A DNA stretch of 36,388 bases from Candidatus Marinamargulisbacteria bacterium (lineage in GTDB: Bacteria; Margulisbacteria; Marinamargulisbacteria; SXXA01; JAHFDB01), in the NCBI GenBank assembly GCA_964202165.1, contig CAXNHA010000002.1, positions 1-36,388 on the forward strand. The letters are read 5' to 3'. Position 1 is the first letter of the stretch, and each line of letters opens with the position of its first letter. Shown here piece after piece: positions 1,405 through 32,885 of the stretch. The position numbers and the translations under genes are program-made. The notes below the pieces were generated by a model. That model worked only from the letters and a program-made list of their open reading frames with translations. It was not told the DNA's origin and did no database searches.

Positions 1405-1668
1405 ATGAATACCCTATCTACAAATGTTGTGATTATTATTTCTACCGTAGTAGCAACCCAGCTTGTGGTGATCATAATCAAAAATATCTTATCGTATAGG
1501 GTGCTAAAAAAAGCAGAAAAAATCGCAAACCAGCAAATCAAAGAATCCGAAGAAAGGATCAAGTCCATCCTCCATGAGATGGATAATTCAAAAAGAGACC
1601 TCGTAGAAAGCATGCGACAAGTAGAAAAATTGGCTTCTGAAGGAGAAAGCGATGATTCTTCTCAATAA
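1405..1668 (+). CDS. hypothetical small membrane-anchored coiled-coil protein (N-terminal TM helix, K/E-rich tail)
   Basis: ATG is preceded by AAGGAA. There is a hydrophobic N-terminus (VVIIISTVVATQLVVIII) followed by a charged helix. It overlaps the next ORF, which has its own strong SD. No family was recognised. Confidence 0.55.
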   Translation: MNTLSTNVVIIISTVVATQLVVIIIKNILSYRVLKKAEKIANQQIKESEERIKSILHEMDNSKRDLVESMRQVEKLASEGESDDSSQ

Positions 1669-3156: not shown

Positions 3157-3615
3157 TCAACAAAATGGTTTACTGTTCAGACAAAAAACACATGGGTGTT
3201 TTAATGTTAAAACATGTTGGCAGGTTGTACACAGGGTGTACCCTTTTGTTTTTTTACATTGATTTGCCCATACAATGGCCTCTTTTAAGTTTTTTGGAGA
3301 AAAAACCTCTTCTGTTTCTGGTATTTTTTTGGAAGCAGTTGCGTAAACACGTATATCTTTTATTTTTTTTCTTTTTAGAAGATCGTTCATTTTTTGCAAA
3401 AGCATCGGTTTAAAAAAATCTATTTCTTTTACCCATAAAGGGTTGGTTGACTCTGCATAGACAATCCCTTTTTTAAAAAAATTAAAATAAATATCCTTGG
3501 ATAAATCACCAAAAAGATCTCCCCAAGATTCTTGTAGTATTTTTTCAATTGCCAACGATTCTTTAAGCGTGTCTAAAAATCGATACTTTCCCAATATATC
3601 TTTAATATTATCCAC
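3157..3615 (-). CDS. dciA: DUF721/DciA-like protein with C-terminal CxxC...CxxC zinc ribbon
   Basis: Conserved position directly downstream of recF (8-nt overlap). Size and pattern are DUF721-like (GIVYAESTNPLWVKEI), and the C-terminal Cys cluster is CTTCQHVLTLKHPCVFC. Confidence 0.7.
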   Translation of the reverse strand: MDNIKDILGKYRFLDTLKESLAIEKILQESWGDLFGDLSKDIYFNFFKKGIVYAESTNPLWVKEIDFFKPMLLQKMNDLLKRKKIKDIRVYATASKKIPETEEVFSPKNLKEAIVWANQCKKTKGYTLCTTCQHVLTLKHPCVFCLNSKPFC

Positions 3616-4702: not shown

Positions 4703-5870
4703 GGGAAACCGATTCTACGCTTTGATAGACATGAGGCTCTGTTTTTTCTTCTTGAAATTCATTTGTTTTGATGGGCATCACCACATAAAAATAATCACTG
4801 CCTGTACTAGGTTCAAAAATACAAGGGCTCAATCCATCGTTACAACTTACTTTTACATCATCTGAATCCATATGTTTTAACGCATCTAAAACCAAATGAA
4901 CATTAAACACAACCCTGATCACATCATTACCCATCTGCCTAGATAGCTTTAATTCTTCATAAAAGCTACCCATAGAACTCGCTCTCGATGTCATGATAAC
5001 GGTATCCATACCCACAAGAAGGCTCACCACATTATTGGCCTCTGACGCAACAATAGAGGCTCTCTCACATGCATCAAAAAAGGCCCGTCTCGAAATTAAA
5101 ACAGACTGACTCGGCATCTTGGGAATTACTTTTGTGTAATCTGGAAACTTAGACTCAATGGTCCGAGAAATAAGAACAATACTTCCCATTCTAAAAGAGA
5201 CTTGTTTTTCTGAAACAGAAAGTAAAACATCTTCAGAAAAATCAACAACTTGCAATATTTTTTGAAAATCAGCCAATGTTTTTTGAGGAATAATAACCGT
5301 AAAATCAGGTACAAAACTTTCTGGTTTGAGTTGATACAAGGCCAATCGGTATCCATCTGTGGATACACAGGTAAGTTGTCCTGATTCACTTTTCAAAAAA
5401 ATCCCATTTAAATGGGATTTTTTTTCATCAGAAGAAACACAAAATAACGTGTGTTTAATCATTTCTTTAAGAGAGGCTATGCTAAGTCTAAATTCCAAAC
5501 CGGCATTTATTTTTGGAAAATCTGGATACTCAGCAACATCAATACCCGATACATTAAAATTAACCGTCTCAGCAGAAATATGCACTTCAAATGCATCATT
5601 TTTTGAAAAATCAAGGGTTTTGTTTTGCAACTTACCCAACATACTACTCAATGTTTTTGATTTGATAAGAATAGAACCAGGTTCAGAAGCATTAATTGGG
5701 AGCGTGTATTCTATGGCAATTTCAAGATCATTTCCTCTTAGGAAGAGTGTTTGGTCTTGAATGGAAAGGTACATATTTTCCAATATGGGGATAGGGGTTC
5801 TGGAAGGTATCGCTTTTTCAACAATGGATACAGCTTTTTGTAAATTGCTGCTGCTACATGTGAATTTCAT
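4680..5870 (-). CDS. dnaN: DNA polymerase III beta sliding clamp
   Basis: MKFTCSSSNLQKAVSIVEKAIPSRTPIPILENMYL... is a typical DnaN N-terminus. The gene follows dnaA. SD AGGAGAG lies upstream of the ATG. About 27 aa of acidic tail extend past the usual MPxx C-terminus. Confidence 0.93.
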   Translation of the reverse strand: MKFTCSSSNLQKAVSIVEKAIPSRTPIPILENMYLSIQDQTLFLRGNDLEIAIEYTLPINASEPGSILIKSKTLSSMLGKLQNKTLDFSKNDAFEVHISAETVNFNVSGIDVAEYPDFPKINAGLEFRLSIASLKEMIKHTLFCVSSDEKKSHLNGIFLKSESGQLTCVSTDGYRLALYQLKPESFVPDFTVIIPQKTLADFQKILQVVDFSEDVLLSVSEKQVSFRMGSIVLISRTIESKFPDYTKVIPKMPSQSVLISRRAFFDACERASIVASEANNVVSLLVGMDTVIMTSRASSMGSFYEELKLSRQMGNDVIRVVFNVHLVLDALKHMDSDDVKVSCNDGLSPCIFEPSTGSDYFYVVMPIKTNEFQEEKTEPHVYQSVESVSHAEEIME

Positions 5871-6100
5871 TTTTAAGACTCTCCTTTTTTTAATTCTAAT
5901 AATATGAATTTTCTAATTTAATATATAAATTAGTAGTAGTAATAGCTGTGGAAATGTGGACAAAGCTATTTTTTAATGGATTTTAACACGATTTTTAAAG
6001 GATTACCCTGTGAAAAAATTGGGGTAAACCTGCTACAACTTTTATCAAGTAAAGGGTTTATCCCAAGTCATCCACATACTATGGGTATCTTATCCACAGG
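5871..6100. promoter_or_regulatory. oriC-like dnaA-dnaN intergenic region: AT-rich stretch plus DnaA boxes
   Basis: Scored against TTATCCACA: perfect box at 6090-6098, TcATCCACA at 6068-6076 (8/9). Two overlapping reverse-orientation boxes follow: TGTGGAAAT at 5947-5955 (7/9) and TGTGGACAA at 5955-5963 (8/9). A strongly AT-rich segment lies at about 5890-5945. Confidence 0.6.
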
Positions 6101-7450
6101 TTATGCATCGTTTTTAATATTTGAGATTAGTAGGGTGATAATGCTTCTTGTATCAGAATCAGTTTGCAACATTCCTTTGATTTTATCGCAGGCATGCATA
6201 ACAGTAGAATGATCTCGCTTGCCAAAATTTTCACCAATTTTTGGCAAAGAAACATTGGTCAATTCTCTTGCCAAATACATGGCTATTTGACGAGAAAATG
6301 CTATTTCTCTTGTTCGTTCCTTTGAACAAAGTTCGGAATTGGAAATGTTAAAATAGTCACATACTTTTCGTTTAATATAATTAATAGAAATGGGTTTTTC
6401 TTGCTTAATCCCAATCAAATCACGAATGACGTTGCTTGCAATAGAGAGGGTTACTTCTGTTTTAAGAAGGGAGGCATACGCTACGATTCGCGTCAGAGCC
6501 CCTTCCATTTCACGGACATTTGATGGGATTTGTGTCGCAATAAAATGGAGGATTTCATCAGAAACAGTGAGGTGATTGATCTCAATTTTTTTTCTCAAAA
6601 TAGCAATTCTTGTTTCCAATTCAGGGGGTTGAATATCAGCAATTAATCCCCATTCAAAACGGGTTCTTAGACGAAGTTCTAGCGTGGGAATTTCTTTTGG
6701 GGGTCTATCTGAGGAAATTACGATTTGTTTGTTGTTGCTATGTAAATCATTAAAGGTATGAAAAAACTCTTCTTGCGTTTGTTCTTTGCCAGCAAGAAAT
6801 TGAATATCATCCACCAACAAGACATCAAGTGTCCTATATTTTGCTCTAAAAGACTCTACTTTTTTATCTTTGATGGCATTGATTAGGTCGTTTGTAAATT
6901 TTTCAGAAGAGACAAGCTGGATTTTGGATTTTTTATTTTTTCTGGATATTTCCATACCAATAGCATGGAGGAGATGTGTTTTGCCAAGTCCAACAGATCC
7001 ATAGATAAATAAGGGGTTGTACGCCTTTGCAGGTGCTTTGGAAACAGCTTCTGATGCGGCATGGGCAAATCGGTTGTTGTGACCCACAATAAAATTATCA
7101 AACGTATACCGCTGGTTAAATCCATTGGGGGTTTCATAGGGCTCAACAGGGTTTTGAATGTCTGACAGACTCATTTGATACGTAGAAGGGGACGACTCTA
7201 TTGATTCGGAAACGGTATATAAGAAGATAATATCTTGGTAAGCGGTTTTGTTGAGCGATTGTTTTAAAATAGGCTCACACTTCTCTTTAATCCATTCTCT
7301 AGAAAACATATTGGGGACCTCGATGGTCAAAACGAGGCTTTCAAATCCAACGGGCTTTGCGCAAGATAAAAACGTTTGAAATCCAGGTCCAGATAGTTTT
7401 TCTTTTAAAGAACTTAATACAATTTCCCATAATATCATCATGTTATACAC
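6101..7450 (-). CDS. dnaA: chromosomal replication initiator DnaA
   Basis: Walker A GSVGLGKTHLLHAIG, Walker B LLVDDIQF, and C-terminal DNA-binding signature IAFSRQIAMYLARELTNVSLPKIGENFGKRDHSTVMHA. The track start is GTG at 7450; ATG at 7441 or 7438 (MMILWEIV...) are equally plausible. Confidence 0.97.
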   Translation of the reverse strand: MYNMMILWEIVLSSLKEKLSGPGFQTFLSCAKPVGFESLVLTIEVPNMFSREWIKEKCEPILKQSLNKTAYQDIIFLYTVSESIESSPSTYQMSLSDIQNPVEPYETPNGFNQRYTFDNFIVGHNNRFAHAASEAVSKAPAKAYNPLFIYGSVGLGKTHLLHAIGMEISRKNKKSKIQLVSSEKFTNDLINAIKDKKVESFRAKYRTLDVLLVDDIQFLAGKEQTQEEFFHTFNDLHSNNKQIVISSDRPPKEIPTLELRLRTRFEWGLIADIQPPELETRIAILRKKIEINHLTVSDEILHFIATQIPSNVREMEGALTRIVAYASLLKTEVTLSIASNVIRDLIGIKQEKPISINYIKRKVCDYFNISNSELCSKERTREIAFSRQIAMYLARELTNVSLPKIGENFGKRDHSTVMHACDKIKGMLQTDSDTRSIITLLISNIKNDA

Positions 7451-7581: not shown

Positions 7582-8472
7582 TTAGAGTATTTTTTCCAAA
7601 TATTTTGTAAAAATATAATAGAGTTTAAGCCTAGGAGAGATTTGGTTTTGGATAATTCCATTTAATTGGACCAAGACAAATTGTTGGATAGCGGGTTGAT
7701 TTAAGGTGGTTTTTAAGAATTTTTTTGTATGGGATTGGGTGATAGATTGGACAATTGGAAAATCTCCTTCGAGAAGTTGAACATATAGATGGAGTTTTTC
7801 AATCAAGTGGATAAAATCGTAGGTAGGAGATTCAAAAAAAGAAACAACATGAAGGGTATGCCCAGATGCATTTTTGACCGATAAATCTTCTGGTAAAAAT
7901 TGAGCGATGTATAAAAATAAGGCGTTGATTTGTTCGGATGGAAGCGATGAAATCAAGATAAATAAGTCATGAATGGGCAATGATTTTTCTGAGAAAAAAT
8001 TCAAGGTAAGTATTCTTTTTTCAAAAGAAGAGAGAATATGGGTGAGGGTTTGCGTATAAGTGGATAAGCAGATAATCCCTTTTTCTAAACACAAAAAAGA
8101 AGGCTCTGTCCAGTTTTCTTTGAGAATTTTTTTGGATATTCCTTTAAAAAATAAGAGAAAATCATCCCCATTCTCTCCCCATATAAACGTATCCTTAACC
8201 CTATTTTTCCAGACAATCACGACTTTGGACTCGATAAAAGAAATTTTTTGGATGTCAGGGATCAAAATCCCTTTGTGAAAAGACAGGAGAAGAAGACAGA
8301 GTAGTTGAAATAAAAACAAGGTATCTGGATGGTAAAGATCGGCTTTTATATCCCGTTTTTGATCCAAAAAAACGTCTAAATGCCCTATTTTTTCTGCAAT
8401 ACCTTGGAGCATCAATAGAGAGGGAGGGTGATGAAGTTTTACCATTATGTTGTGGCTAGGTGAGAGACTCAA
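7582..8472 (-). CDS. hypothetical protein (296 aa, no recognised motif)
   Basis: Long ORF co-directional with and overlapping the upstream aminotransferase gene by 17 nt. TTG start; an alternative ATG lies at 8445. Confidence 0.55.
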   Translation of the reverse strand: MSLSPSHNIMVKLHHPPSLLMLQGIAEKIGHLDVFLDQKRDIKADLYHPDTLFLFQLLCLLLLSFHKGILIPDIQKISFIESKVVIVWKNRVKDTFIWGENGDDFLLFFKGISKKILKENWTEPSFLCLEKGIICLSTYTQTLTHILSSFEKRILTLNFFSEKSLPIHDLFILISSLPSEQINALFLYIAQFLPEDLSVKNASGHTLHVVSFFESPTYDFIHLIEKLHLYVQLLEGDFPIVQSITQSHTKKFLKTTLNQPAIQQFVLVQLNGIIQNQISPRLKLYYIFTKYLEKIL

Positions 8473-9646
8473 TCCATTGTTTCATGCGAGAAAGTCCCGT
8501 ATGAATATCAGGTAAAGAGGTTGCATAAGACAGTCGGATAAACCCTTCTGCACCAAATCCAGACCCAGGGATACAGGCAACCAGAGCTTCTTTTAAAAGA
8601 AATTGGCAAAAATCTGCATCAGTTTTGATCACCCCACTCTTACAAGACTTGCCCATAAGGGAAGCGATAGTGGGAAATGTATAAAAAGCACCATCTGGAT
8701 TGAGACAATGCACCCCAGGTATGTGATTGAGAAGAGCGACCATCTCATTTTTTCGCTTTTCAAATGCCAGCCGCATAGTGGCAATACTGGCATCGCCTTT
8801 TATCAAGGCATCCACACCTGCCCATTGAGAGGGGGTGTTGGCGTTGGAGGTGCAGTGGCTCTGAATCGTTCCCATGGCGGTGGCTATTGTAAGAGGGGAT
8901 GCACTATAGCCGATACGCCATCCCGTCATAGCATATGCCTTGGATAATCCATTGACCAAAATGGTGAGGTCTTGAAGCTGAGGGTCCAAAGACGCAATGC
9001 TTATATGGGCCACATTGCCATACACCAGTTTTTCATAAATCTCATCAGATAACACCAGCAGGCGATGCGCCAAGATAACCTCTGCCAAGGCAACAAGTTC
9101 GGACTTGGTATAAACAGATCCGGTGGGATTAGAAGGAGAATTTAAAATCAATAATTTTGTTTTAGGCGTGATAGCAGCTTTTAATTGAGGAGCCGTGATT
9201 TTGAATGCAGTAGACTCAGATGTGGGAATAAAGACGGGGATACCACCACATAGATGGACTTGATCGGGATAACTCACCCAATACGGAGAGGGGATAAGGA
9301 CTTCGTCCCCGGGATCGATTAAGGCCATCATAGCATTAAAAATACTGTGTTTTGCCCCGCAAGAAATCACAATTTGAGAGGGCGTGTACACAAGGTTTTG
9401 GTCTTGTTTTAGAGAGGAGGCAACGGCTTCTTTTAATTCTAAAATACCAGTGGCAGCTGTATAACGTGTTTTTCCAGATCGGATTGCCTTGATACCAGAC
9501 TCTTGAATAAATTCAGGTGTATCAAAATCAGGCTCACCTGCGCCAAAATTGATGACATCAAGACCTTCTTTTTTGAGTTTTTGGGCATATGCGGTAATGG
9601 CCATGGTTATACTGTCGCCAACAGATGAAGCACGTTTTGCAATCAT
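8456..9646 (-). CDS. class I PLP-dependent aminotransferase (aspartate/prephenate aminotransferase type)
   Basis: Carries the PLP-lysine motif NGLSKAYAMTGWRIGY, NSPSNPTG, and a GAGEPDF N-terminal motif. The length of ~396 aa is typical. Confidence 0.9.
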   Translation of the reverse strand: MIAKRASSVGDSITMAITAYAQKLKKEGLDVINFGAGEPDFDTPEFIQESGIKAIRSGKTRYTAATGILELKEAVASSLKQDQNLVYTPSQIVISCGAKHSIFNAMMALIDPGDEVLIPSPYWVSYPDQVHLCGGIPVFIPTSESTAFKITAPQLKAAITPKTKLLILNSPSNPTGSVYTKSELVALAEVILAHRLLVLSDEIYEKLVYGNVAHISIASLDPQLQDLTILVNGLSKAYAMTGWRIGYSASPLTIATAMGTIQSHCTSNANTPSQWAGVDALIKGDASIATMRLAFEKRKNEMVALLNHIPGVHCLNPDGAFYTFPTIASLMGKSCKSGVIKTDADFCQFLLKEALVACIPGSGFGAEGFIRLSYATSLPDIHTGLSRMKQWIESLT

Positions 9647-13623: not shown

Positions 13624-14199
13624 TCAAAGTAGAAAACGGGGCTTTTTTAACCACATCAGAAACGCATCTGTAAGAGCCTGGGCAAAGAGAGCTTTATCGT
13701 AGGGTTTCCCCGTTTGCTGATACAATGATGTGGCCACATGAGACAGAAGATCTGAAAAATGGTCGTGGTTGAGATTGATACCCACCCCCACCACAACATA
13801 CCGAGGATATATGGAGTGCCCTTCCACAGCTGTTTCGAGCAAAATACCTGCCACTTTTTTACCATCGATCATGACATCATTGGGAGGCTTGAGTGTGGGA
13901 TGCACACCGGAAAGGGTCTGGATCACATGGATGACAGATTGAGCTGCGGATGTCACCACAGCGGGGATGTCTTCCAACGTAAAAGAAGGTTTTATTAACA
14001 ACGAATAGTACAGCCCATCTTCTGAGTCAGAATGCCAGATGTGATCACCTTGGCCTCGACCGGCAGTTTGGGTATCAGCCACAATCACCAATCCCGTCTT
14101 GAGTTGATCCTCAGTGAGGGTGGAGGCCAAGCGTTTGGCCTCGTTGTTGGTGGAGTCGAGAGAGGGGTATGTATAGATTTTGGGGTTAATATTTGCCAT
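13624..14199 (-). CDS. birA: biotin--protein ligase, catalytic domain only (191 aa, no HTH and no C-terminal cap domain)
   Basis: GRGQGDHIWHS (compare GRGRxGRxW), LKPPNDVMIDGKKVAGILLE (compare KWPND...KLAGILVE), and VGVGINLN. It overlaps the 3' end of the carboxylase gene by 14 nt on the same strand. Confidence 0.75.
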   Translation of the reverse strand: MANINPKIYTYPSLDSTNNEAKRLASTLTEDQLKTGLVIVADTQTAGRGQGDHIWHSDSEDGLYYSLLIKPSFTLEDIPAVVTSAAQSVIHVIQTLSGVHPTLKPPNDVMIDGKKVAGILLETAVEGHSIYPRYVVVGVGINLNHDHFSDLLSHVATSLYQQTGKPYDKALFAQALTDAFLMWLKKPRFLL

Positions 14200-17100
14200 G
14201 CTTTTCGATCAGCATTTCTGCAACCCGGTCAGATTCATCATGGGAATATCCATTTGGGAATAATTTTTTAAATTCTTCTTCGGTCACAATCGCAAATGCA
14301 GACTCTCCATCCAAAAATCGTGCCACATTACATTGTTCCATTGTCAATTCTGTGGCTTTACCCTGTTTGATCAGCTCCATAACTTTTGACAATCCCTTTC
14401 TTAAGGGAATAAGGACGCCTTGGGTGTGCCCTGTCGGAAACTGCGATTGGAACAACGCGTCGGTGCTTTCTTTTTTTGAGACCTCTCGTGTCAAGACCAT
14501 ATTGCCTATTGTGACCACTTGGCCAAATTCTACCCCACCCAAAAGTCTCTTGATATATCCCGCTCCACCGACGCCACTTGTTGCAAACAATGTGTTTCTG
14601 ATCTCCGGTATTCGCTTTGCAAATGTAATTGGGATGACATAAGGCTCTCCATCCACCAAAAAATGAGCTAATTTTTGATTGGTCATTTTATTGATTTTAG
14701 GTTCTATGTGCTGAAGTTCAACCTCCATGGATTTTCCGTTTGGTAACTGGATGCGATATTTTTTGCCAGGCACCATATTGCCCATAGCCAACTCATGGGT
14801 TAACAGCGTTTCTCCATACTTTTGCATATGTTCAAGCAATGCTGCCAAGTTATCATCTGGCAACATTGCACCTGCTATCAACGTTAATGAATCAAGGCTG
14901 TTAATGACGCCCCAGGAGATTCCTTTTTCATTATGAAGACGTTGTTTGAAGGCTTCTAGATTAAATGGCCTTTCGTGAGGTGCTGTTAGTCCATATGCCT
15001 CCATTACATCCTTCCTATAGGAAGGAAACCCCAGTGGATTGGGCTCTCCCATTTCTCCTGCAATAAAATCACGAACCGTCTTGTCTAAGTTAAGATCTCT
15101 GATTGCTTTCTGATTGCCACTGTTCAATGTGTCCAAATACTCTTTTGCAATCTGGTCTAACAACAAGACACGGGTTAATTCTTTTTTTAATGCATTTGTA
15201 TCGCGATCAGGAGCCCACAAAATAGCTTTGTAGCCATTTTCTTGTGCGGAAGGATCTATAGTAGAAACAGATTTTGTTTCAAAAACCAATCTATCTGCTT
15301 CTTTTTGGATATTGAGATAGGTGTCGCTTTTTAAGAATGTTTCGTCCTTGAGTGACACATCTAGTCTACGAAGTAAATCCAGTCCCAGATTGGCTGTAGC
15401 TTGAGATGTTGGGGTAACCAATGTAAGACGGTGGTAGGGATTTTTAAAATCAGGTGTATCTGCCAAAATTTTGTCAGCAAATGCATAGGCCCACCCCGCT
15501 ACACGGCCATCAGAAATAGAGGTTAAGGGCAGGCCATTGTTGACAATTTGAGAGGCAAAGCTTGGTGCTTGGCCACCGGGTATGCGAAAAAATCGAGCTC
15601 CCAACGGGCCTAAAAAGGCTTCGCATTGGGATGGGGATACCTTCATATCATTGTAGTAGGAATGTAAGTTGTCATAAAACTTTGTTACGGTCTGAATATG
15701 CTCATCGACAACTTCTTGAGGAAGATGCTTGCCAGATGCTTTAATCTCTTTAATCAAGTCTTGTATAGAAACTTGCCCAAAGCTTTTACCCATATTGGTA
15801 AAAGCAGCATCCATGAGATCTGCTCCAGAATTTGCTTGCACCCTGGCGGCATCTCCTTTTGGATTGTGCATGTGCGTGTGTACCAATCCTTTAAATCCAC
15901 AGTCTTCCTTGATGATTCTCACCAATTCTTTCATATCAGAGACATTGGCTTGGCCAACCATATCTTTGATATCAATGATAAATTCATCTTGGTCCAACCC
16001 CTGTTCTTTGGCCAAAGCGATGATATTGTGGACCAGTTTTCTGTAGTAGGCTGCGTTGTAGACGGTGTCTCCACCTGTAAGGGCTCCCGTGTATACCACA
16101 GAAAACATAGGCATCACGACACCCTGAAAGCCTTCATTTTTTAATTCTTTGATCGCTTGGCAATACGCCTTGATGCTTTTGGATAAGCCTACCTGGGCAT
16201 CTTTATCCACAGAATTGCAGGCGTCAAAAATACGGGGCATTGTACATCCGGATTTGATCGACTCTTTAAACAGAAGTACCAGCGACTCCATGGGTTGCGC
16301 ATAATAGCTAATGCCAGTTGAGCGAAATAACCAGCTTGAGATGGTATCAGACAAGGTGTGTAGATCTTTCATCACCCGACCATGGTCTTCTTGTTTAAAG
16401 AGTAGGTCTGCAGCAGCCCGTGCACCGCCACCACCCTCCATCATAAAAAATGGAAATAGTTTTCGAATAGGATCTAAAACATCTCGCGTATCAACGCTAC
16501 GGTCTCTATTGGCAAGATCGGACTGAAAATGATCTCTTTGATTGGTGTATACAGGAATTACCAGGTTGTTTTCTTGTATCCATTTTGTAAAGCCTTTTGG
16601 ACCCAACTCTTGCAATTTATCTTTAATGCCACTTTGTTTTTCTATGCCCTTCTTGATCATGGATAATAATCCACGTAATTCCTCTATAGGATAAGGGCTA
16701 TTTTCTGCATTGGGATTGATCTTTTGTTGGGAAGCCTTGACCCCTCCTGCAAGATCTGACACAGCCTGAAGAGCCCCGTTTTGTTGTTGGATCGCCTCCT
16801 GTTTTTTTTGAATCTTAGCGGGGGCCGTCTCGTACAAATAGGGATCGCGTTGTGCTTGATCTGTGGGCACAACTTTGTCTTGACCAATCTGCTCAGCTGC
16901 ATTCCATAGAGGCGTCAGATTTAAGCTTGGGCCTGAGATCTGCACGTTAATCAAAAAGCGTTTTGTTTTTTCTGCCCATAATGTTTTGGCTAATTTGAGA
17001 TAGCCCTTTTCTCCAATCTCATCTGAAGAATACCTGTCCAACACCTCTTGCTTGGTGATGCTAATTTCCACTCTCATGATATTGCTATCCCCACTCACAG

Positions 17101-18730
17101 GGATGCCTTGTCCTGTACCAATACAATTGCCAGGAACGTAGACGCCTGGCATATCTGGAATAATCACCTGCTCAAAGATATTGTTCCCTGTGGTGGTGGT
17201 TGGCATAAAACGCCCATTTTTTTTGGTAAATGCACCCTCCATGTTGACACGAAGCTGGCCATTAAAAAGAACATGCTTATCTGAATTTTTTCGATCCAAG
17301 TCAATTTGCTTATGAATAGGCTCAAGCTCGTACAATGTGCCCCCATTGGCAACATGGCATAGAATAGCTGTAATAGAACACCCGGATGCGTCTTCGGAAA
17401 CAGGATGTTCTACTTGAACACGCGTGTTGACCTCTAATGCAATAAATTTTTGTTGATCACGGTCATACAAAAACTCAATGGTAGCAGCTCCTGCGTAGCC
17501 AATACTGTGCAACATGTTTTGCAATTTTGGTTGATAGCTGTCTAATATCTTTTGTCCTTCAACATCATCAAATAGCGTCTCCAGGTATTTTTTGCTGTCT
17601 CCTGCCTGAAAACTACAATTGCGAGGGGGTAAAAATATTGCTTGCCCATCTTTGTCCATAACAACCTGCATTTCAACGTGTTCAAAATTGCCAGATAAAT
17701 TGGCTTCTACAATCAAATCAGAATTGCCAAATTGGGTTTTTCCTTCTGACTTTGCAGCACTTATGAGGCTTTCAACGGAAGCCATTGCGTTCTTCTGAGT
17801 CTCTCCAGAACCATACAAGGCATCATGAATTATTTCTTTTGGGATGACCCGTTGTCCACCACCTCCGCCACCATCGATGGCTTTTACCCGCAGGTCTTGG
17901 TTGTTTAAATCAGATTGATTCTTTGCAACCCATAAAAATCCAAAGATATCCGAATCAAACCCCTCCTGCGTGTTTAACAAAGGGCTAGACTCTTTCATCC
18001 CAATTTCTCGCAAGGTCTTTTGGGTGCCTGGAATAACAGGTAGGTCAAATGTTGCAAATAATTTTTTGGAGGCATCTTTTGGGCCTACTTGTGCCATTGC
18101 ATTGGAATTTGGCCCAAGAAAAATTAATCGGTTTGCGTATTCTTTAGATAAGTCCTCGAGTTTTTGGACAAAATCAGATTTTTCAGACAAAAACCCATAC
18201 CCAGGATAAACAGAAATCGCTTTGCCGGGGTTCTCTTTTAAAAGCTGTTCTATGTTGGCCAAAATAGAGTCTTGATCGGTATAGCTTTTGATTGGCATGG
18301 TGGTATGTGCATAGTCTCCATGACCCGTTTTTGCTTGCTCATCGCTTGGATCTTGCATGGCTACCAAGCGGGCGCTTCCTCCCGTTAGGGCAGACATTTT
18401 TTGAAAAAAATCTGTGGCACATCCTCCTCGGTGCAGACAAACAATAATGTCTGTATGCTCGATTTTATTGATATAAGGATCCACGTGTTGAGGTGAAAAT
18501 TCTATGCGATTGATGCCTGTTTTATTATTATTATTTGGGATAGAAAGTTCTTGATTTCGAGTAAGTTGTCGTTGTAGAGAGCTAAAATTTTGAGAAGATA
18601 GCCCCATCGGAAAGAGATTAATTTTATTTGACGTCTGTTGCTTTAATTGTTTGGAAAGATATTTCCAAAACATTCCTTTAAGAAGTGGGCGTCTGGTAAC
18701 TTGAGACAATAATCCACTGAATTGCTGCAT
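14186..18730 (-). CDS. giant divergent biotin-dependent carboxylase with pyruvate-carboxylase architecture (biotin carboxylase + carboxyltransferase TIM barrel + BCCP-like domain), ~1514 aa
   Basis: - **BC:** KAIDGGGGGGQRV and EVNTRVQVEHPVSE.
- **CT:** NQRDHFQS, MEGGGGARAAADLLF, IKDMVG, HTHMHN, IPGGQ and VTPTSQ.
- **BCCP-like:** VVTIGNMVLTREVSKKES.
- **Start:** the ORF extends to 18784, but ATG at 18730 is preceded by AAGGGAGG with a 9-nt spacer, so it is preferred. Confidence 0.8.
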   Translation of the reverse strand: MQQFSGLLSQVTRRPLLKGMFWKYLSKQLKQQTSNKINLFPMGLSSQNFSSLQRQLTRNQELSIPNNNNKTGINRIEFSPQHVDPYINKIEHTDIIVCLHRGGCATDFFQKMSALTGGSARLVAMQDPSDEQAKTGHGDYAHTTMPIKSYTDQDSILANIEQLLKENPGKAISVYPGYGFLSEKSDFVQKLEDLSKEYANRLIFLGPNSNAMAQVGPKDASKKLFATFDLPVIPGTQKTLREIGMKESSPLLNTQEGFDSDIFGFLWVAKNQSDLNNQDLRVKAIDGGGGGGQRVIPKEIIHDALYGSGETQKNAMASVESLISAAKSEGKTQFGNSDLIVEANLSGNFEHVEMQVVMDKDGQAIFLPPRNCSFQAGDSKKYLETLFDDVEGQKILDSYQPKLQNMLHSIGYAGAATIEFLYDRDQQKFIALEVNTRVQVEHPVSEDASGCSITAILCHVANGGTLYELEPIHKQIDLDRKNSDKHVLFNGQLRVNMEGAFTKKNGRFMPTTTTGNNIFEQVIIPDMPGVYVPGNCIGTGQGIPVSGDSNIMRVEISITKQEVLDRYSSDEIGEKGYLKLAKTLWAEKTKRFLINVQISGPSLNLTPLWNAAEQIGQDKVVPTDQAQRDPYLYETAPAKIQKKQEAIQQQNGALQAVSDLAGGVKASQQKINPNAENSPYPIEELRGLLSMIKKGIEKQSGIKDKLQELGPKGFTKWIQENNLVIPVYTNQRDHFQSDLANRDRSVDTRDVLDPIRKLFPFFMMEGGGGARAAADLLFKQEDHGRVMKDLHTLSDTISSWLFRSTGISYYAQPMESLVLLFKESIKSGCTMPRIFDACNSVDKDAQVGLSKSIKAYCQAIKELKNEGFQGVVMPMFSVVYTGALTGGDTVYNAAYYRKLVHNIIALAKEQGLDQDEFIIDIKDMVGQANVSDMKELVRIIKEDCGFKGLVHTHMHNPKGDAARVQANSGADLMDAAFTNMGKSFGQVSIQDLIKEIKASGKHLPQEVVDEHIQTVTKFYDNLHSYYNDMKVSPSQCEAFLGPLGARFFRIPGGQAPSFASQIVNNGLPLTSISDGRVAGWAYAFADKILADTPDFKNPYHRLTLVTPTSQATANLGLDLLRRLDVSLKDETFLKSDTYLNIQKEADRLVFETKSVSTIDPSAQENGYKAILWAPDRDTNALKKELTRVLLLDQIAKEYLDTLNSGNQKAIRDLNLDKTVRDFIAGEMGEPNPLGFPSYRKDVMEAYGLTAPHERPFNLEAFKQRLHNEKGISWGVINSLDSLTLIAGAMLPDDNLAALLEHMQKYGETLLTHELAMGNMVPGKKYRIQLPNGKSMEVELQHIEPKINKMTNQKLAHFLVDGEPYVIPITFAKRIPEIRNTLFATSGVGGAGYIKRLLGGVEFGQVVTIGNMVLTREVSKKESTDALFQSQFPTGHTQGVLIPLRKGLSKVMELIKQGKATELTMEQCNVARFLDGESAFAIVTEEEFKKLFPNGYSHDESDRVAEMLIEKHGKY

Positions 18731-18860
18731 AGCAATTGACCTCCCTTTTTTGAATGTTGAGTAGCTTGCTATAGTTCTGTACAAGATAAACGAACATTGC
18801 GTATAGTGTTTTTTTTGAGAAGCTGGAAAATATATAGGCTGAAAGGGGGATGGTCAACCA

Positions 18861-19427
18861 ATGATATCCAAAACACAGGTGTCACTAGCAGGGAGTGTTC
18901 TGTTCTTGCATCCTAAGATCGACTCTACCAATCTTGAGGCTGAACGTTTTTTGCATACAGCGGATGAAGGAGCTTTGCATGAGGGGGCTGTGTTTATTGC
19001 CAAAATCCAAACCAATGGACAGGGTAGTTTTTATCGAAAATGGGTCTCTGATCTGGGAGGCTTGTATTACAGCTTGTTGATGCCCTGTTCGGAAGCAGTG
19101 GCCCAAACCAATGCGCTTCCCCAGATTGCAACCTGTGTTAGAGATGTGCTTTTTGAATTCACACACCTACCTGTCGAAGTAGATCATCCCAATGACCTTG
19201 TTGTGGGGGACAAAAAAATAGGCGGTATTTTATTAAAAACGCTACCAAAACAAATGCAACACTTTATCATTATCGGCATCGGTATTAATCTAAACCAGAG
19301 CTCTTTTTCTGATGAGATTCACATGCGAGCAACCTCTGTCTTTCAGCTTACAAAAAAACGCATCAGCCAAAAAGCTATTGCCACCCCTCTCACGCTAGCC
19401 CTAAAAAAATGCTTGGTATCGCTTTAA
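18861..19427 (+). CDS. biotin-protein-ligase-like paralog with degenerate catalytic motifs (188 aa)
   Basis: Has the same fold pattern as the 13624-14199 product (LGGLYYSLL, DKKIGGILLK, IGIGINLN). However, the biotin loop reads TNGQGSFYRKW and the KWPND position reads DHPND. It is divergent from the carboxylase gene. Confidence 0.65.
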   Translation: MISKTQVSLAGSVLFLHPKIDSTNLEAERFLHTADEGALHEGAVFIAKIQTNGQGSFYRKWVSDLGGLYYSLLMPCSEAVAQTNALPQIATCVRDVLFEFTHLPVEVDHPNDLVVGDKKIGGILLKTLPKQMQHFIIIGIGINLNQSSFSDEIHMRATSVFQLTKKRISQKAIATPLTLALKKCLVSL

Positions 19428-19448: not shown

Positions 19449-20615
19449 CTAAATGCCTCTAAAAAGAGCAGCGATCGGGATGAGATGAACCGTGTCTATG
19501 ATGTCGTAGGTTTCACCAGTATAAAATAGAATTAAACGGATTGCTCGGTCCGAATGCACCTGAGAAAATGCCACTAGAGATCGAATGTCTTTGCGGCTTG
19601 GTTTCTTCGTGCTTTTTATTTCAATGGCATACAGGACATAGTCATCTGTTTCAAAAATCAGGTCAATTTCTCTACCTGAAACGCTTTTGTAATAATAGAA
19701 TTGCGCACTTTTTATCAATCCTAATTTTCTTCTTTTTTCCAATTCAGCAATCACAAAATTTTCTAATAGCTGGCCTTCTTGTAAGGGAATGTTCAGGCTA
19801 TGGATGATGCCATTGTCTGCAAAGTATGTTTTTGCCGCTTTAATGTATCGTTTTGCAGGACCGTATTGGTAGCCGTAAAGTTTAAAAACAAGCTGGGATT
19901 GAGTTAAAATAGCGAGATACTTCTGAGCAGTCGGGTAACTTAATCCTGATTCTCTGGCAAAATTGGATGTTTCCAGAGGAGAGCCTATGGATCGAGCGAT
20001 ATGGTGAAAAATACCAAGCAATCCCTGCTGGTGCTCGATGTGGGCCAACTGCATAATATCTCGGATAAAATAGGTGTTCTTATAATTGGCCAAAAGGGTT
20101 TGTTTAAGCGGTGGGGTTGGTTGCAAAATAACTTCAGGAAATTGTCCATAGGTGATAGCTGTCTGCAACTGCCGTTGCGCTTCTTTAATGATCGGGGGCG
20201 TTTGTTTGTCGGTGAAAATAGTGTGAGTGGGTTTGCCTAGTTCTTCTCCCCAGCATACTGTTGGAAATTGATAGAGGGATATTCGCCCTGCCAATGTATC
20301 AGCCGCACTGTCTAATAGCCCAATTGAGCTTGACCCTGTCATAAAAAAGAGGGCATCACTGCTATCGATGGCATACTTAACGGCTATCGTTAGACGGGGT
20401 TCTCTTTGGATTTCATCAATGATGACCTGTTTTCCTAGGCTGTTAATAAATCCTTTTGGATCGTTTTTTGCCCATTCCAGGTAATCCAAGTCATCTAGCG
20501 TGACGTAATTAAAACTGGGAAAAGCTGTTTTTAAGTACGTGGTTTTTCCAGATCGCCTGGGGCCTATTATGAGGCAACTTTTAGCGGGATCTATGGTGAG
20601 CCATCTTGAGAACAT
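19449..20615 (-). CDS. AAA-family ATPase with winged-helix and C-terminal PD-(D/E)xK nuclease-like domain (AAA_14 + DUF4143 architecture)
   Basis: Walker A GPRRSGKTT, Walker B VIIDEIQ, a putative wHTH LSYPTAQKYLAILTQSQLV, and the C-terminal REIDLIF...YAIEIKSTKK (D...ExK). Confidence 0.8.
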   Translation of the reverse strand: MFSRWLTIDPAKSCLIIGPRRSGKTTYLKTAFPSFNYVTLDDLDYLEWAKNDPKGFINSLGKQVIIDEIQREPRLTIAVKYAIDSSDALFFMTGSSSIGLLDSAADTLAGRISLYQFPTVCWGEELGKPTHTIFTDKQTPPIIKEAQRQLQTAITYGQFPEVILQPTPPLKQTLLANYKNTYFIRDIMQLAHIEHQQGLLGIFHHIARSIGSPLETSNFARESGLSYPTAQKYLAILTQSQLVFKLYGYQYGPAKRYIKAAKTYFADNGIIHSLNIPLQEGQLLENFVIAELEKRRKLGLIKSAQFYYYKSVSGREIDLIFETDDYVLYAIEIKSTKKPSRKDIRSLVAFSQVHSDRAIRLILFYTGETYDIIDTVHLIPIAALFRGI

Positions 20616-20674: not shown

Positions 20675-20746
20675 AAAACCAATACGCTTCCTCAGATTGC
20701 GACTCCCCTAACAATCGCCTTGAAAAAATGCTTGGTATCGCTTTAA
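20675..20746 (+). pseudogene. collapsed remnant of a birA-2 copy
   Basis: Translates as KTNTLPQIATPLTIALKKCLVSL*. This is birA-2 ...QTNALPQIAT fused to IATPLTLALKKCLVSL*. At the DNA level, 20676-20703 matches 19105-19132 (3 mismatches), and 20695-20760 matches 19376-19441. Confidence 0.8.
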
Positions 20747-22090
20747 AAGTGCCCCTAACAACTCTTGATGCTGGGGCTCTTTGTGGATAGACAGAAGCTC
20801 TTGGATACGGGTGATACGCTCGTCAATAGATACAAAGTCGCCGGCGTTTTTTAAGAGTGTGCCGGTCTCATATCGAGGAATCATATAGCGGCTCAGATGC
20901 TCTTGTGTGGGATGGGGGTGCCAGTTGAGATAGGCGCGGTTGAATAATTGCATCAGATAAAAATCTTTTTTGTGTCGACCATTCTGCTTGTATTGGTCCA
21001 ACAACGTCCGAATCGTGCGTGCGTAACTATCGGGCTGCTGGATCAATGTCTGAACACAATGCCCTAAAATCGGAATACGCTCAAATCCCAGTTCATACAA
21101 TTGATAGTCAATGTCCCAGTCTTTTTTAATTTTTTCATAATACAGTTCAGGGGTTAGCGTTGCGATAAACCCATGCCCAGAGGCTTTTTCGTACACAGGT
21201 GTCCAATAGGATGTTTCTTCAGCAGAAAGGGCTTCAGAGATAAAAAAATGCTTGTTTGGGTTGATACGATGCAAGCAAGAAAGGCAATCGATTTCTGTAG
21301 CTTCCTCTGGTAGGTGTTGCCATTTATCCAAATCCAGCAGCAACAAGGCCTGTTTATCTTCCCATAGTTTTGCCCAATAGCGAGGTGTTTTGTGATCAGG
21401 AACCGCCTCACTTTGCGAATATCCAATCTCCCATTGTTTGAGCATAAAAAATGGTTTTTTAGGATACTGAATGGGTATAAATTTGGAAAAAGATACCCCA
21501 AATTTTTGTTCAAATGCCCGTATCAAATCCACCATGAGATGGACATCTTCTTCCGCCGAGTGGGTCTGAGGTGCCGTCAATACACCCATCGATTTGGCCA
21601 AGGTTTCGAGCTTGAAAACGTAATACGGATTGCCCAATGCATTAACTCCCAACTCCCATGGGAATGACTCAGAGTGGATGAGGGCCAGCCATTTTGCAAC
21701 ATGTAAGACGTCTCGATTTTGCAATTTGCCCATAAAATAGGGGTTGTACCCATATCGAATCAGCAAGCTTCTTAAAAATTCCAAATCAAATCGATTGCTA
21801 TTAAATCCCACCAACGTGCATGTCCCGTATTGTTGGATGCACCGATTCAAAAAATCAAAAATAGTCTTGGCAGCCTCATATTCAGGGATCCCTTTGTGCG
21901 CAAGCTCCTCTATATGGATTTGATTGACCCAAATGGCATCTGGATCGGGGAGTTGTATGCGGTTGAGCTGAATGTAGCCTGTGCAGGTATCCAGACAGGT
22001 GTAGGAAGTGTCTAGACAGAAAAACGCATAGGAGAGTATCTGCCCTAACAGATCCCTCGAAGAGGTTTCAAAATCATAAAACAGGTACAT
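20708..22090 (-). CDS. sbcB: exodeoxyribonuclease I-like DEDDh 3'-5' exonuclease
   Basis: LFYDFETS (ExoI motif), GFNSNRFDLEFLR (ExoII), and HSAEEDVHLMVDL (ExoIII H-x4-D). The length of 460 aa is similar to E. coli ExoI. Confidence 0.78.
   Translation of the reverse strand: MYLFYDFETSSRDLLGQILSYAFFCLDTSYTCLDTCTGYIQLNRIQLPDPDAIWVNQIHIEELAHKGIPEYEAAKTIFDFLNRCIQQYGTCTLVGFNSNRFDLEFLRSLLIRYGYNPYFMGKLQNRDVLHVAKWLALIHSESFPWELGVNALGNPYYVFKLETLAKSMGVLTAPQTHSAEEDVHLMVDLIRAFEQKFGVSFSKFIPIQYPKKPFFMLKQWEIGYSQSEAVPDHKTPRYWAKLWEDKQALLLLDLDKWQHLPEEATEIDCLSCLHRINPNKHFFISEALSAEETSYWTPVYEKASGHGFIATLTPELYYEKIKKDWDIDYQLYELGFERIPILGHCVQTLIQQPDSYARTIRTLLDQYKQNGRHKKDFYLMQLFNRAYLNWHPHPTQEHLSRYMIPRYETGTLLKNAGDFVSIDERITRIQELLSIHKEPQHQELLGALLKRYQAFFQGDC
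20723..20760 (+). repeat. direct repeat copy 2 (38 bp), covering the 3' end of the exonuclease gene
   Basis: 37/38 identical to 19404-19441. Confidence 0.9.
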
Positions 22091-22595
22091 CTTGTTTGCT
22101 AAAAGAAGGCCAATACCGACAGACCATCAGTAGCACAGGTACGTATAGAATATCCCCTAAAACAGCGTTTCTAAAAAATGGCAAGGCCAGAACGTACGCC
22201 TCTAAAAGCCCTCCAAACGTATGCGGATACAGTCCGCTTGATACCCAAACCCCAAAATTACTGACCACAAAAAAACAACTGGAGCCTGCCAGCGTCACAA
22301 AAACCCATTTTCCAGACAGCATAGATTGTTTTGCCATCCGCCCTATCACCATAATCCCGATAAAACCAAGATAGACCCAAACAATACCGGGATACATCAC
22401 ACCAAATATCCAATCACTGGCCACCAGTGTGAGAAGGGGAATCCCAAATGCCAACGATGGGCGCGACATATAAACACCTGCCACAAGACAGATAGCTGTG
22501 ATAGGGGTCATGTTGGGTAAGTGGGGAATGAACCTACCAAACAACCCTAAACAGACCAAAAAAAACGGCATATAAGTACGAAAATCAAGACGCAT
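22074..22595 (-). CDS. polytopic membrane protein, possibly DUF6580-type (ECF-S-like) transporter component
   Basis: 5-6 hydrophobic segments. The N-terminal RFIPHLPNMTPITAICLVAG resembles the family motif as I recall it. It overlaps sbcB by 17 nt. Confidence 0.55.
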   Translation of the reverse strand: MRLDFRTYMPFFLVCLGLFGRFIPHLPNMTPITAICLVAGVYMSRPSLAFGIPLLTLVASDWIFGVMYPGIVWVYLGFIGIMVIGRMAKQSMLSGKWVFVTLAGSSCFFVVSNFGVWVSSGLYPHTFGGLLEAYVLALPFFRNAVLGDILYVPVLLMVCRYWPSFSKQDVPVL

Positions 22596-24068: not shown

Positions 24069-25934
24069 ATGGAGCGTGTTATGATCGACAATCATAAAGC
24101 CATGAACCATTCTTCTGACCTTATTCATACCTTCCATATCCCTGTTATGGGGACGGCTTTTACGATTGATTCACCTGTCAAAGTAGCTCGTTTTGGTATC
24201 ACATCCGTTGTCTCTATTGGAGACGATGAATTATGCGAGTACACGCGAGAACACTATACACAATCCCTGAGGGAGTCTTTTGAGCCCATTACCAAAAAAG
24301 ATCACGATTACCGGGCAAAACGCATTACCGCCTATTTGAATCTGATTAATCGTATTGTTGAGCAACAAATGGTCACCATGGCGCAGCTTCCTTTTGGTTT
24401 AAACAATGATCTTGCAAAATACTTCGAGCTGTTACCGGAAAATTCTGAGATCAAAAAAACCTATATCAAGATGATATCTTTGCCAGAAGGATCCGAAAAA
24501 CAAATGCATCAAGCCTATTTGAAAACCTGTATTAGGCCAGGCTCCATTGATGTGAATATCATGACCAAAATCGACCGGGACACCTATGATCAAAACGGAG
24601 AGTTGCTGCCTGAGCATTTTTCAGATGCCTTAGCTGCTCTAAGAGGGTATGCACTGAGTACATTGTCTTCGGCCGTTGAGTTTTCTGCCGGGTTCAATCG
24701 TCGCCTGTATGCTTATATCGAACAGTTTGATGATTTTTTTCCAGATGCCACAGGGTTTATCAAAAAACAAATCGTGATCAAAGTGTCTGATGTAAGATCA
24801 TCGCTCATTCAAGGAAAGTTTTTGGCTAAAAAAGGGCTTTGGATTTCTGAGCATCGCATTGAATCAGGCTTGAATTGTGGCGGACATGTTTTTCCAACAG
24901 AAGGCCATCTCATGGGGCCTATCTTAGAAGAATTTAAACAAAAAAAAGATACGATCGCATCCACATTTTACGACATGGTAAACGACGCCTTGCTAAAAAA
25001 GGGAAGATTTACTTTTTTACAAACTCCTCCCATGCGTATCACCGTACAAGGTGGGGTTGGTACAGCCAATGAACACCAGTTTTTGCAAAAAGAGTATGAG
25101 GTAGATTCGGTTGGTTGGGGCACTCCTTTTTTATTGGTTCCAGAAGCCACCAATGTAGATGAAAAAACCCGTACGTTATTGGCAACCTCTCCGAGGGAAA
25201 ACTTTTATACCAGTGGGATTTCTCCTCTAGGCGTGCGATTTAATACAGTTAGAGGAACAGATAGCGAAGAGCTTAAGCTAAGACGAGTAGAGGAAGGAAA
25301 GCCGGGTAGTCCCTGCCCAAAAGGACATTTGGTTAACAATACTGAGTTTACAAAAAAACCGATTTGCACAGCATCCACCACCTATCAAAAACGAAAGATA
25401 GAACAATTAAAATCTCTGCAACTATCTCCTGATATCTTGCAAAAAGCTTTTCAAAAAATTATTGACAAAGCCTGTTTATGTGAAGATCTAGCCGCTTCAG
25501 CCTTGATCAACCACCATCAAATCAACAAACGAATCCTAGCACCTGCTATTTGCCCGGGACCCAATATGGGTTATTTTGACCGTACAATGACTTTGTCAGA
25601 GTTGGTTGCCCATATTTATGGGCGTCTGCACGTGATGACGCATGCCAATCGGCCCAATTTGTTTGTATCAGAACTGAGGTTGTATATCGAACACCTTGTT
25701 TTTGAGATCAAGGAGTCGCTACCAAAACCAACTTCCAAACAAATTGGCTATTTTCAGTCCTTCCAGAAAAATCTGATGGAAGGCATTCAGTATTACAAGC
25801 AATTGATCCCAAAATTTACCCTCGAAACCCAAAAGTATCGAGATGCAATGAAAGACGAGCTTCAAGCCATTCGCAATGAGCTAGAGGCTTTAGGGCATGC
25901 ATATCCGCACATCTTTGAGAATGCATTGTCATGA
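24069..25934 (+). CDS. conserved-looking protein of unknown function (621 aa), possibly a TIM-barrel (nitronate-monooxygenase-like GGH motif) with a Cys-rich C-terminal half
   Basis: Long ORF, with an ATGA overlap to the downstream ABC ATPase gene. Motifs seen are HIPVMGTAFTIDSPVKVARFGITSV, ESGLNCGGHVF, VQGGVGTANE, and the Cys set CPKGH...C...CLC...CPGP. No family was identified with confidence. Confidence 0.7.
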   Translation: MERVMIDNHKAMNHSSDLIHTFHIPVMGTAFTIDSPVKVARFGITSVVSIGDDELCEYTREHYTQSLRESFEPITKKDHDYRAKRITAYLNLINRIVEQQMVTMAQLPFGLNNDLAKYFELLPENSEIKKTYIKMISLPEGSEKQMHQAYLKTCIRPGSIDVNIMTKIDRDTYDQNGELLPEHFSDALAALRGYALSTLSSAVEFSAGFNRRLYAYIEQFDDFFPDATGFIKKQIVIKVSDVRSSLIQGKFLAKKGLWISEHRIESGLNCGGHVFPTEGHLMGPILEEFKQKKDTIASTFYDMVNDALLKKGRFTFLQTPPMRITVQGGVGTANEHQFLQKEYEVDSVGWGTPFLLVPEATNVDEKTRTLLATSPRENFYTSGISPLGVRFNTVRGTDSEELKLRRVEEGKPGSPCPKGHLVNNTEFTKKPICTASTTYQKRKIEQLKSLQLSPDILQKAFQKIIDKACLCEDLAASALINHHQINKRILAPAICPGPNMGYFDRTMTLSELVAHIYGRLHVMTHANRPNLFVSELRLYIEHLVFEIKESLPKPTSKQIGYFQSFQKNLMEGIQYYKQLIPKFTLETQKYRDAMKDELQAIRNELEALGHAYPHIFENALS

Positions 25935-32866: not shown

Positions 32867-32885
32867 TCAAGAAGGAGCACACACA

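Follow-up and report, generated by a model that had tools for sequence, protein, structure and literature searches.

A rare, expanded pyruvate carboxylase-type enzyme with a predicted, methionine-free biotin site, encoded between minimal biotin ligases in a Candidatus Marinamargulisbacteria bacterium

The carboxylase gene, its relatives and its domain layout

The stretch of DNA analysed here (the window) comprises 36,388 nucleotides (nt; contig CAXNHA010000002.1, positions 1-36,388) of a Candidatus Marinamargulisbacteria bacterium, and all coordinates are given in window numbering. It carries a giant gene encoding a protein of 1514 amino acids (aa) of the pyruvate carboxylase (PC) type, flanked on either side by a gene for a short biotin protein ligase (BPL). 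The features of this locus are as follows (ORF, open reading frame).

13624..14199, minus strand: ligase A, a short BirA-type BPL (191 aa) that lacks the C-terminal domain; loop GRGQGDHIW (ORF, Pfam, NCBIfam, alignment)
14186..18730, minus strand: coding sequence for the giant PC-like protein, of 1514 aa and a stop codon (ORF list, database protein P0001)
18740..18745, minus strand: Shine-Dalgarno-like GGGAGG, 9 nt ahead of the ATG at 18730 (read from the sequence)
18829..18857, minus strand: putative sigma-70-like promoter TTGACC-17-TATATT, 10/12 match (consensus match alone)
18861..19427, plus strand: ligase B, a short BirA-type BPL (188 aa) that lacks the C-terminal domain; loop GQGSFYRKW (ORF, Pfam, NCBIfam, alignment)

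The longest ORF of the giant gene (14186..18784, minus strand) has 1532 codons when counted from the TTG at 18784. The likely start codon is the ATG at 18730, given the GGGAGG upstream and the promoter-like sequence, which lies within the 130-nt divergent intergenic region common to the carboxylase gene and ligase B; translation from this ATG yields the protein called by public gene callers (P0001), and the frame is unbroken over its 1514 codons. Plus-strand ORFs at 14193-14642, 15698-16144 and 15729-16046 were rejected as shadow ORFs of the long gene, and horizontal transfer of the carboxylase gene was dropped as an explanation, its G+C content (0.42-0.44) matching that of the window.

Relatives of this protein are few. 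A word-indexed search of 5.8 billion proteins recovered one close relative (P0002, 1962 aa), the remainder being ordinary PCs at 23-31% identity, and when 1.84 billion representatives at 50% identity were searched exhaustively with HMMER, five of them proved to be clade members (P0001, P0002, P0121, P0122 and P0123); the next score is 160 bits, down from 604. Scanning the GTDB species, with one genome each, contributed two further clade loci, i.e., L003, in an unclassified groundwater 'bacterium' metagenome-assembled genome (MAG) whose protein is 98% identical to P0123, and L004, in a Candidatus Marinamargulisbacteria MAG that is the sole named relative; L005 (Ktedonobacter) turned out to be an ordinary biotin-carboxylase match and was set aside. 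The locus L007 reveals that P0121 covers the C-terminal part of a ~1760-aa protein. Clade members range from 1514 to 1962 aa, share 33-57% pairwise identity outside the near-identical P0123/L003 pair and are 24-28% identical to canonical PCs. None has been characterised: all five representatives are metagenomic, their sole names are automatic 'pyruvate carboxylase' labels from the Joint Genome Institute (JGI), and no characterised close homologue of the same length, against which an earlier note on this DNA had cautioned, is found among them. A search of the literature turned up nothing specific on Margulisbacteria and PC, nor on non-canonical MKM motifs. The clade represents a rare and expanded form of PC-type carboxylase; in P0001 the predicted biotin site is free of methionines, and the gene is coupled to one for a minimal, loop-altered ligase.

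The family assignment points to PC. Pfam recognises Biotin_carb_N (PF00289) and CPSase_L_D2 (PF02786) in P0001, and beyond these a sub-threshold HMGL-like match alone. The best whole-chain matches are the NCBIfam PC equivalogs NF009554 (287 bits, 3.4e-85) and TIGR01235 (238 bits, 1.3e-70), and solved PCs are the best sequence matches in the PDB (~6e-45). Taken by itself, the carboxyltransferase (CT) domain matches PCs with 70 bits, against 35 bits for oxaloacetate decarboxylase alpha and 19 bits for transcarboxylase 5S, and the NCBIfam OadA and PycB models reach 44-51 bits on P0001 against cut-offs of 402-756. With its fused biotin carboxylase (BC) domain and a CT domain nearer to PC, the protein thus falls outside OadA, PycB and transcarboxylase 5S.

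The earlier note had described an oversized, highly divergent PC-type enzyme with BC and CT motifs on one chain, and its ORF and the length of 1514 aa were both borne out, while the low family scores show 'highly divergent' to be accurate. Every motif that it quoted was found at the expected place: GGGGGG (residues 287-292), FQAGDSKK (374-381) and EVNTRVQVEHPVSE (433-446) in the BC domain, RDHFQS (732-737), IKDMVG (921-926), HTHMHN (951-956), IPGGQ and VTPTS (1105-1109) in the CT domain, and the carrier motif LTREVSKKESTD at residues 1413-1424. The domains of P0001, all on the minus strand, are arranged in the following order.

18488..18730: N-terminal extension (residues 1-81), rich in S, Q, K and N, with low conservation across the clade and no canonical-PC counterpart (alignment)
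16871..18454: BC (ATP-grasp) domain, residues ~93-620 (Pfam, NCBIfam and PDB matches, alignment)
17855..17872: glycine-rich loop GGGGGG, residues 287-292, equivalent to GGGGRG of canonical biotin carboxylases (alignment)
16634..16870: variable Q/K-rich BC-CT linker, residues ~621-699 (alignment)
15356..16633: CT domain, residues ~700-1125 (alignment, NCBIfam and PDB matches)
14585..15355: post-CT region, residues ~1126-1382 (alignment, AlphaFold2, Foldseek)
14189..14584: decorated biotinyl-carrier-like domain, residues 1383-1514 (alignment, AlphaFold2)
14474..14476: codon of K1419, the predicted biotinyl-lysine in EVSKKE (alignment, models)

Compared with six canonical PCs, P0001 has 368 extra residues, distributed among 15 insertions that are each 6 residues or longer: the N-terminal extension (residues 1-81), two in the ATP-grasp domain (248-270 and 300-316), one in the BC C-terminal subdomain (565-585), one in the BC-CT linker (638-680), three inside the CT domain (841-852, 909-916 and 1092-1101), two after it (1127-1176 and 1183-1208), two in the carrier domain (1430-1437 and 1453-1503) and three of 6 residues (163-168, 196-201 and 1271-1276). 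The extension and the ATP-grasp insertions had been anticipated, the former at a slightly greater length (~90 aa), while the proposed linker of ~150 aa did not stand, the linker insertion of P0001 being ~43-80 aa and hugely variable within the clade. In the post-CT region the two insertions, which are helical and clade-specific, precede a beta-sheet segment of the PC-tetramerisation type. Linker and post-CT insertions vary greatly across the clade, being hundreds of residues longer in P0002 (the linker region also in the P0121 protein), and are probably flexible or coiled rather than new catalytic parts.

Catalytic residues and the predicted biotin site

To compare the active sites, P0001 and the other clade members were aligned with E. 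coli biotin carboxylase (EcBC, each numbered residue being checked by script) and with six canonical PCs. All 13 BC residues considered (EcBC K116, K159, E201, H209, Q233, K238, E276, E288, N290, R292, Q294, E296 and R338) are kept in P0001 and recur unchanged in each clade member whose sequence covers them, with E201Q in P0002 as the single exception. The BC segment RRHQK, which the earlier note had listed as altered, does read FQAGDSKK, yet its catalytic lysine is kept (EcBC K238, here K380). In the CT domain, 10 of 10 residues are kept (R732, D733, Q736, S737, R803, the carbamyl-lysine K922, D923, H953, H955 and T1106) and are identical in every clade member covering them; eight of these (R732, D733, Q736, R803, K922, H953, H955 and T1106) are invariant across the clade and the six canonical PCs, and correspond to the pyruvate- and metal-holding residues R548, D549, Q552, R621, K718, H747, H749 and T882 of R. 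etli PC (RePC). Given that the catalytic residues stay identical while the clade has diverged to 33-57% identity, we read them as being under purifying selection, and their invariance at such divergence argues for a working enzyme.

The predicted site of biotin attachment is altered in its flanks and retained at its centre. K1419 of EVSKKE aligns on the biotinyl-lysine of canonical EAMKME (MAFFT), in the full-length alignment 'TREVSKKEST' of P0001 and 'TKEVMKVETP' of P0002 coincide exactly with canonical 'TEAMKMETT', and the match to the NCBIfam PC profile reaches just beyond K1419. Across 29 C-termini (5 from the clade and 24 from canonical PCs) this lysine is the sole invariant column, whereas its surroundings within the clade (EVSKKE, EVMKVE, EVMKIK, SVNKKE, SIKKQD and CINKKD) range from near-canonical to methionine-free. 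The earlier note's claim of an MKM motif that kept its lysine and lost both methionines therefore holds, and neither the alignments nor the PC profile place a canonical MKM elsewhere. Since EVMKVE or EVMKIK persists in closer clade members, the methionines were apparently lost recently and in a graded manner, stepwise within the clade (MKV, MKI, NKK, SKK and KKQ).

The fold of the C-terminus was predicted with AlphaFold2 from two alignments, which are described by their confidence scores (pLDDT, predicted local distance difference test; pTM, predicted template modelling score).

Model 1: residues 1310-1514, mixed clade and canonical alignment (L004 row excluded), pLDDT 91.1, pTM 0.77
Model 2: residues 1375-1514, five clade sequences only (canonical rows excluded so that they could not impose their fold), pLDDT 87.8, pTM 0.81

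Both models have the same topology, with K1419 at the tip of a beta-hairpin (in a turn of two residues that joins two long strands), followed by the next strand, two helices, a final strand (SAFAIV) and two further helices. The top 30 Foldseek matches of model 1 are all PCs, over the tetramerisation and carrier region, with E-values down to 7e-7. The strongest matches of model 2 are biotinyl, lipoyl and H-protein domains at weak E-values (0.02-0.3); the top one is a glycine-cleavage H protein, and the BCCP (biotin carboxyl carrier protein) of Pyrococcus is matched with a TM-score of 0.72 and a root-mean-square deviation of 3.5 Å. The C-terminus is thus predicted to be a flattened beta-sandwich of the biotinyl type with its lysine at the hairpin tip, which is where the earlier note had proposed to look for it. 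The ~80-aa tail that the note placed after the carrier is in part a helical insertion inside this domain; what follows is the last beta-strand and a shorter, two-helix tail.

In its overall design P0001 resembles single-chain PCs (EC 6.4.1.1; S. aureus 3bg5, R. etli 2qf7 and L. lactis 5vyz), with which it shares the order of BC, linker, CT, tetramerisation-type segment and carrier, the BC and CT catalytic residues that were checked, the lysine at the hairpin tip and the best sequence and fold matches. Unlike them, it is 24-28% identical to the family, scores about one third or less of the family cut-offs, carries ~368 extra residues in 15 insertions, lacks methionines on either side of the lysine (SKK; MKV, MKI, NKK and KKQ in relatives), has a carrier with two inserted helices and a helical tail, and its gene is always paired with a ligase gene.

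Biotin protein ligases beside the carboxylase gene

The flanks, on which the earlier note was silent, add a new context in the form of two ligase genes. The ATG of ligase A overlaps the carboxylase stop codon by 14 nt on the same strand, and ligase B is divergent from the carboxylase gene. Both proteins (36% identical to each other) carry PF03099 only and exceed the TIGR00121 cut-off of 83 bits, with 114 and 102 bits. No match to PF02237, the SH3-like C-terminal domain, is present in ligase A or B, and a C-terminal extension was not overlooked, since the adjacent genes leave no room for one. Aligned with E. coli BirA, the ligases keep DSTN, Q112, G115, W123 and the catalytic lysine K183 (BirA numbering), and all of them end ~20 residues past the catalytic core. 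What has changed is the biotin-binding loop: all characterised BPLs that we know of read GRGRxGRxW, in contrast to GRGQGDHIW in ligase A and GQGSFYRKW in ligase B.

A short, PF03099-only ligase gene adjoins the giant gene in each of the seven loci whose flanks are readable (the window, the P0002 contig, available as a gene list only, L001, L002, L003, L004 and L007). Outside the window these ligases are 198-204 aa long, and their genes immediately precede the giant gene on its own strand in L001, L002, L003 and L004 and are divergent in the P0002 contig and L007. Together with ligase B they constitute one group at 41-55% identity (the neighbour of P0002 was assigned by its loop motif), and ligase B is orthologous to the ligases that accompany all other clade members. 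The loop of this group reads QTxGQGS(F/H)YRxW against GRGRRGRKW in BirA, which places a serine at the position of BirA R118; the R118S variant of E. coli BirA is promiscuous. A profile search returned ~12-19 such short ligase relatives before ordinary PF02237-bearing ligases appeared.

The nearest relative of ligase A (P0398, 49% identity) belongs elsewhere, namely between valyl-tRNA synthetase and biotin synthase in L008. Of the two, ligase A has the look of a general ligase, and B that of the ligase linked to the carboxylase, although in the window it is ligase A, not B, that is positioned for co-translation with the carboxylase. In L008 (982-2639) the genes for valyl-tRNA synthetase, ligase and biotin synthase (radical SAM plus BATS) overlap; the adjacency of valyl-tRNA synthetase and ligase recurs in the window in reversed order, and the valyl-tRNA synthetase of the window is 59% identical to that of the nearest locus compared.

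Among known systems, the window ligases are closest to class I BPLs, i.e., BirA-type enzymes without a DNA-binding domain (A. aeolicus, P. horikoshii; TIGR00121), with which they share PF03099, DSTN, the catalytic lysine and GxGxN; they differ in lacking the PF02237 SH3-like domain and, in the ligase B group, in the loop GQGS(F/H)YRxW. Some organisms possess two BPLs, e.g., Francisella novicida with BirA and BplA, and the two paralogues in the window similarly suggest a division of labour; here, however, the two are minimal enzymes encoded on either side of one divergent carboxylase gene. A further parallel is found in the engineered microID and ultraID (A. aeolicus BPL residues 2-171), which likewise consist of a ~20 kDa core only and have an altered biotin-binding loop. 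Ligase B shares its C-terminal truncation with ultraID and its serine with BirA-R118S/TurboID, yet while microID and ultraID are laboratory constructs selected for promiscuity, the ligases described here are natural, conserved and linked to one giant substrate. A BPL truncated to its core, without the C-terminal domain, still makes biotinyl-AMP (ultraID preprint).

Proposed function and wider context

We think it probable that the giant gene specifies a working PC-type carboxylase, biotin-dependent and formed by a single chain, which probably converts pyruvate to oxaloacetate and has co-diverged with its own minimal ligase. Biotinylation of K1419, the ligase responsible for it, the substrate and the oligomeric state are what we infer for this enzyme, and its cycle would run as follows. 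A BPL encoded next door, of the ligase B type across loci, although in the window ligase A may also be co-translated with the carboxylase, would attach biotin to K1419 at the hairpin tip of the decorated carrier domain; the N-terminal ATP-grasp BC domain would carboxylate this biotin using ATP and bicarbonate; the carrier would then swing to the metal-centred TIM (triose-phosphate isomerase) barrel of the CT domain, where a 2-oxo acid would receive the carboxyl group. Pyruvate is the most likely acceptor, as the residues that hold pyruvate and metal are kept, the CT domain is nearest to PCs and the window encodes enzymes that could use the resulting oxaloacetate.

8456-9646, minus strand: aspartate-aminotransferase-like gene, 426 bits, under the cut-off (family profile)
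31225-32184, plus strand: malate dehydrogenase, above the cut-off (family profile)
32204-35545, plus strand: succinate dehydrogenase/fumarate reductase CAB, SdhCAB (family profiles)

Several observations weigh against this assignment. The curated PC equivalog cut-offs are not reached (287 versus 965 bits for NF009554 and 238 versus 1114 for TIGR01235), and with scores so far below them the protein may not be functionally equivalent to PC. The Pfam scan of P0001 gave no match to PF00364, PF02436 or PF02785, so that the carrier is not recognised, and PF00364 is absent from both P0001 and P0002 even at E <= 0.1; aligning the isolated clade C-terminus to canonical BCCP with hhalign recovered the correct register with weak support (P = 0.006). 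P0001 reads VSKK instead of (A/V)MKM, with no flanking methionine, and in the 1.3S subunit of transcarboxylase mutagenesis has reportedly shown that these methionines matter for carboxyl transfer. In the CT domain the residues beside the catalytic ones differ from those of PC (RDHFQS versus RDAHQS, GGGARAA versus WGGATFD and HTHMHN versus HTHDTS), which leaves room for another 2-oxo-acid substrate. Apart from the ligase, no neighbouring gene is conserved across the clade loci, metabolic genes included. Finally, in L002 a PC-like paralogue of 1296 aa (15268-19158) lies immediately downstream of the giant gene and possesses a canonical EAMKM along with PF00364 and PF02436 matches, and with this neighbour the giant enzyme may not be the ordinary PC of the L002 host.

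The strongest competing explanation is that the same machinery carboxylates something else, either another 2-oxo acid (e.g., 2-oxoglutarate) or a small acceptor, and that the enzyme is not an anaplerotic PC. Such a role, for which the distance of the clade from all PCs, the altered CT neighbourhoods and the L002 paralogue speak, seems to us an unlikely though credible one: the residues that hold pyruvate and metal in RePC are all retained, single-chain PCs remain the nearest relatives of the CT domain, oxaloacetate-using enzymes are encoded in the window, and the L002 paralogue, whose own CT motifs are altered (RDWAQV for RDAHQS and VKAADG for IKDMAG), need not be a 'real' PC. A related idea, to which we give similarly little weight, is that the giant carboxylase and the ligase of the B type are a private, co-evolved biotinylation pair, with the enzyme possibly acting on a substrate other than pyruvate; the carrier that ligase B would then modify, methionine-free and decorated with helices, might escape recognition by ordinary ligases.

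Far less probable is a decaying or non-catalytic PC relic, with a carrier that is no longer biotinylated and a structural or regulatory role. The missing (A/V)MKM motif, the failure of Pfam to recognise a biotinyl domain and the many low-complexity insertions would fit such a relic, but the frame is intact, the checked catalytic residues and the carrier lysine are invariant even at 33-57% identity, a biotin ligase gene is kept beside the carboxylase in every readable locus, and the carrier fold is predicted with high confidence. Least plausible of all is a carrier bearing another cofactor (lipoate or a biotin analogue) attached by an atypical ligase, an idea prompted by GQGS(F/H)YR in place of GRGRRGR in ligase B and its orthologues and by the lipoate-bearing H protein as the top match of the clade-only model, because the ligases score above the BirA-type TIGR00121 cut-off and keep DSTN, Q112, G115, W123 and K183, the chemistry of BC and CT requires the ureido ring of biotin, and the match to H protein is not specific, given that biotinyl, lipoyl and H-protein domains share one fold. 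In the functional PC-type carboxylase that we favour, we take the methionine loss and the insertions to reflect enzyme and ligase diverging jointly in this lineage rather than a function being lost.

The window is chromosomal and uniform in G+C, and the gene cluster listed below indicates that it adjoins the chromosomal origin (cluster span 3157-7450, minus strand).

6101-7450, minus strand: DnaA, replication-origin cluster
4680-5870, minus strand: DnaN, replication-origin cluster
3608-4702, minus strand: RecF-like ATPase, replication-origin cluster
3157-3615, minus strand: DciA-like protein, replication-origin cluster
19449-20615, minus strand: AAA_14/DUF4143 ATPase gene (also L002:4513-5691 and L003:2001-3158)

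An AAA_14/DUF4143 ATPase gene (21-28% identity) thus occurs within a few kb of the giant gene in three loci, a recurrence that may be coincidence or reflect a mobile gene. ORFs of 621, 296, 173 and 276 aa (24069-25934, plus strand; 7582-8472, minus strand; 1652-3003, plus strand) had no Pfam or NCBIfam match; the one of 621 aa lies directly ahead of an ABC-2 transporter pair. An ORF of 460 aa (20708-22090, minus strand) has a weak N-terminal exonuclease-I-like match (56 bits versus a cut-off of 260) and overlaps a DUF6580 gene (22074-22595, minus strand), just downstream of rho.

Divergent carboxylases of this kind are also seen outside the clade. Two intermediate PC-like proteins, P0124 (1113 aa) and P0126 (1280 aa), score 160 and 125 bits to the query; the carrier lysine of P0126 stands in the context 'NIMKSP', and P0124 seemingly stops ahead of the carrier domain. 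A second, far more divergent PC-like clade is represented by L006:3138-7133 (GCA_965082235.1; 1331 aa) and the partial L010:1-3675 (GCA_964652635.1), which are 34% identical and have recognisable BC, CT and carrier motifs, with the lysine in 'MQVNKML' and 'FMISKEI', respectively; no Pfam family is on record for the L006 protein. Each is directly followed by the gene of one of the ~12-19 short ligase relatives mentioned above (P0396 in L006, where an aminotransferase gene comes next, and P0395 in L010), which may point to a wider, undescribed group of carboxylase-ligase modules in uncultured bacteria.

For annotation, the clade is a case of proteins automatically named 'pyruvate carboxylase' although the curated thresholds fail, and its sister clade one without any domain match. 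Natural BPLs that consist of the catalytic core only and have a rewritten loop bear on how ligases recognise their acceptors, and possibly on proximity-labelling tools. Having kept the lysine and the catalytic residues and lost the near-universal Met-Lys-Met, the clade is a natural experiment on what the flanking methionines do in biotin-dependent carboxylases.

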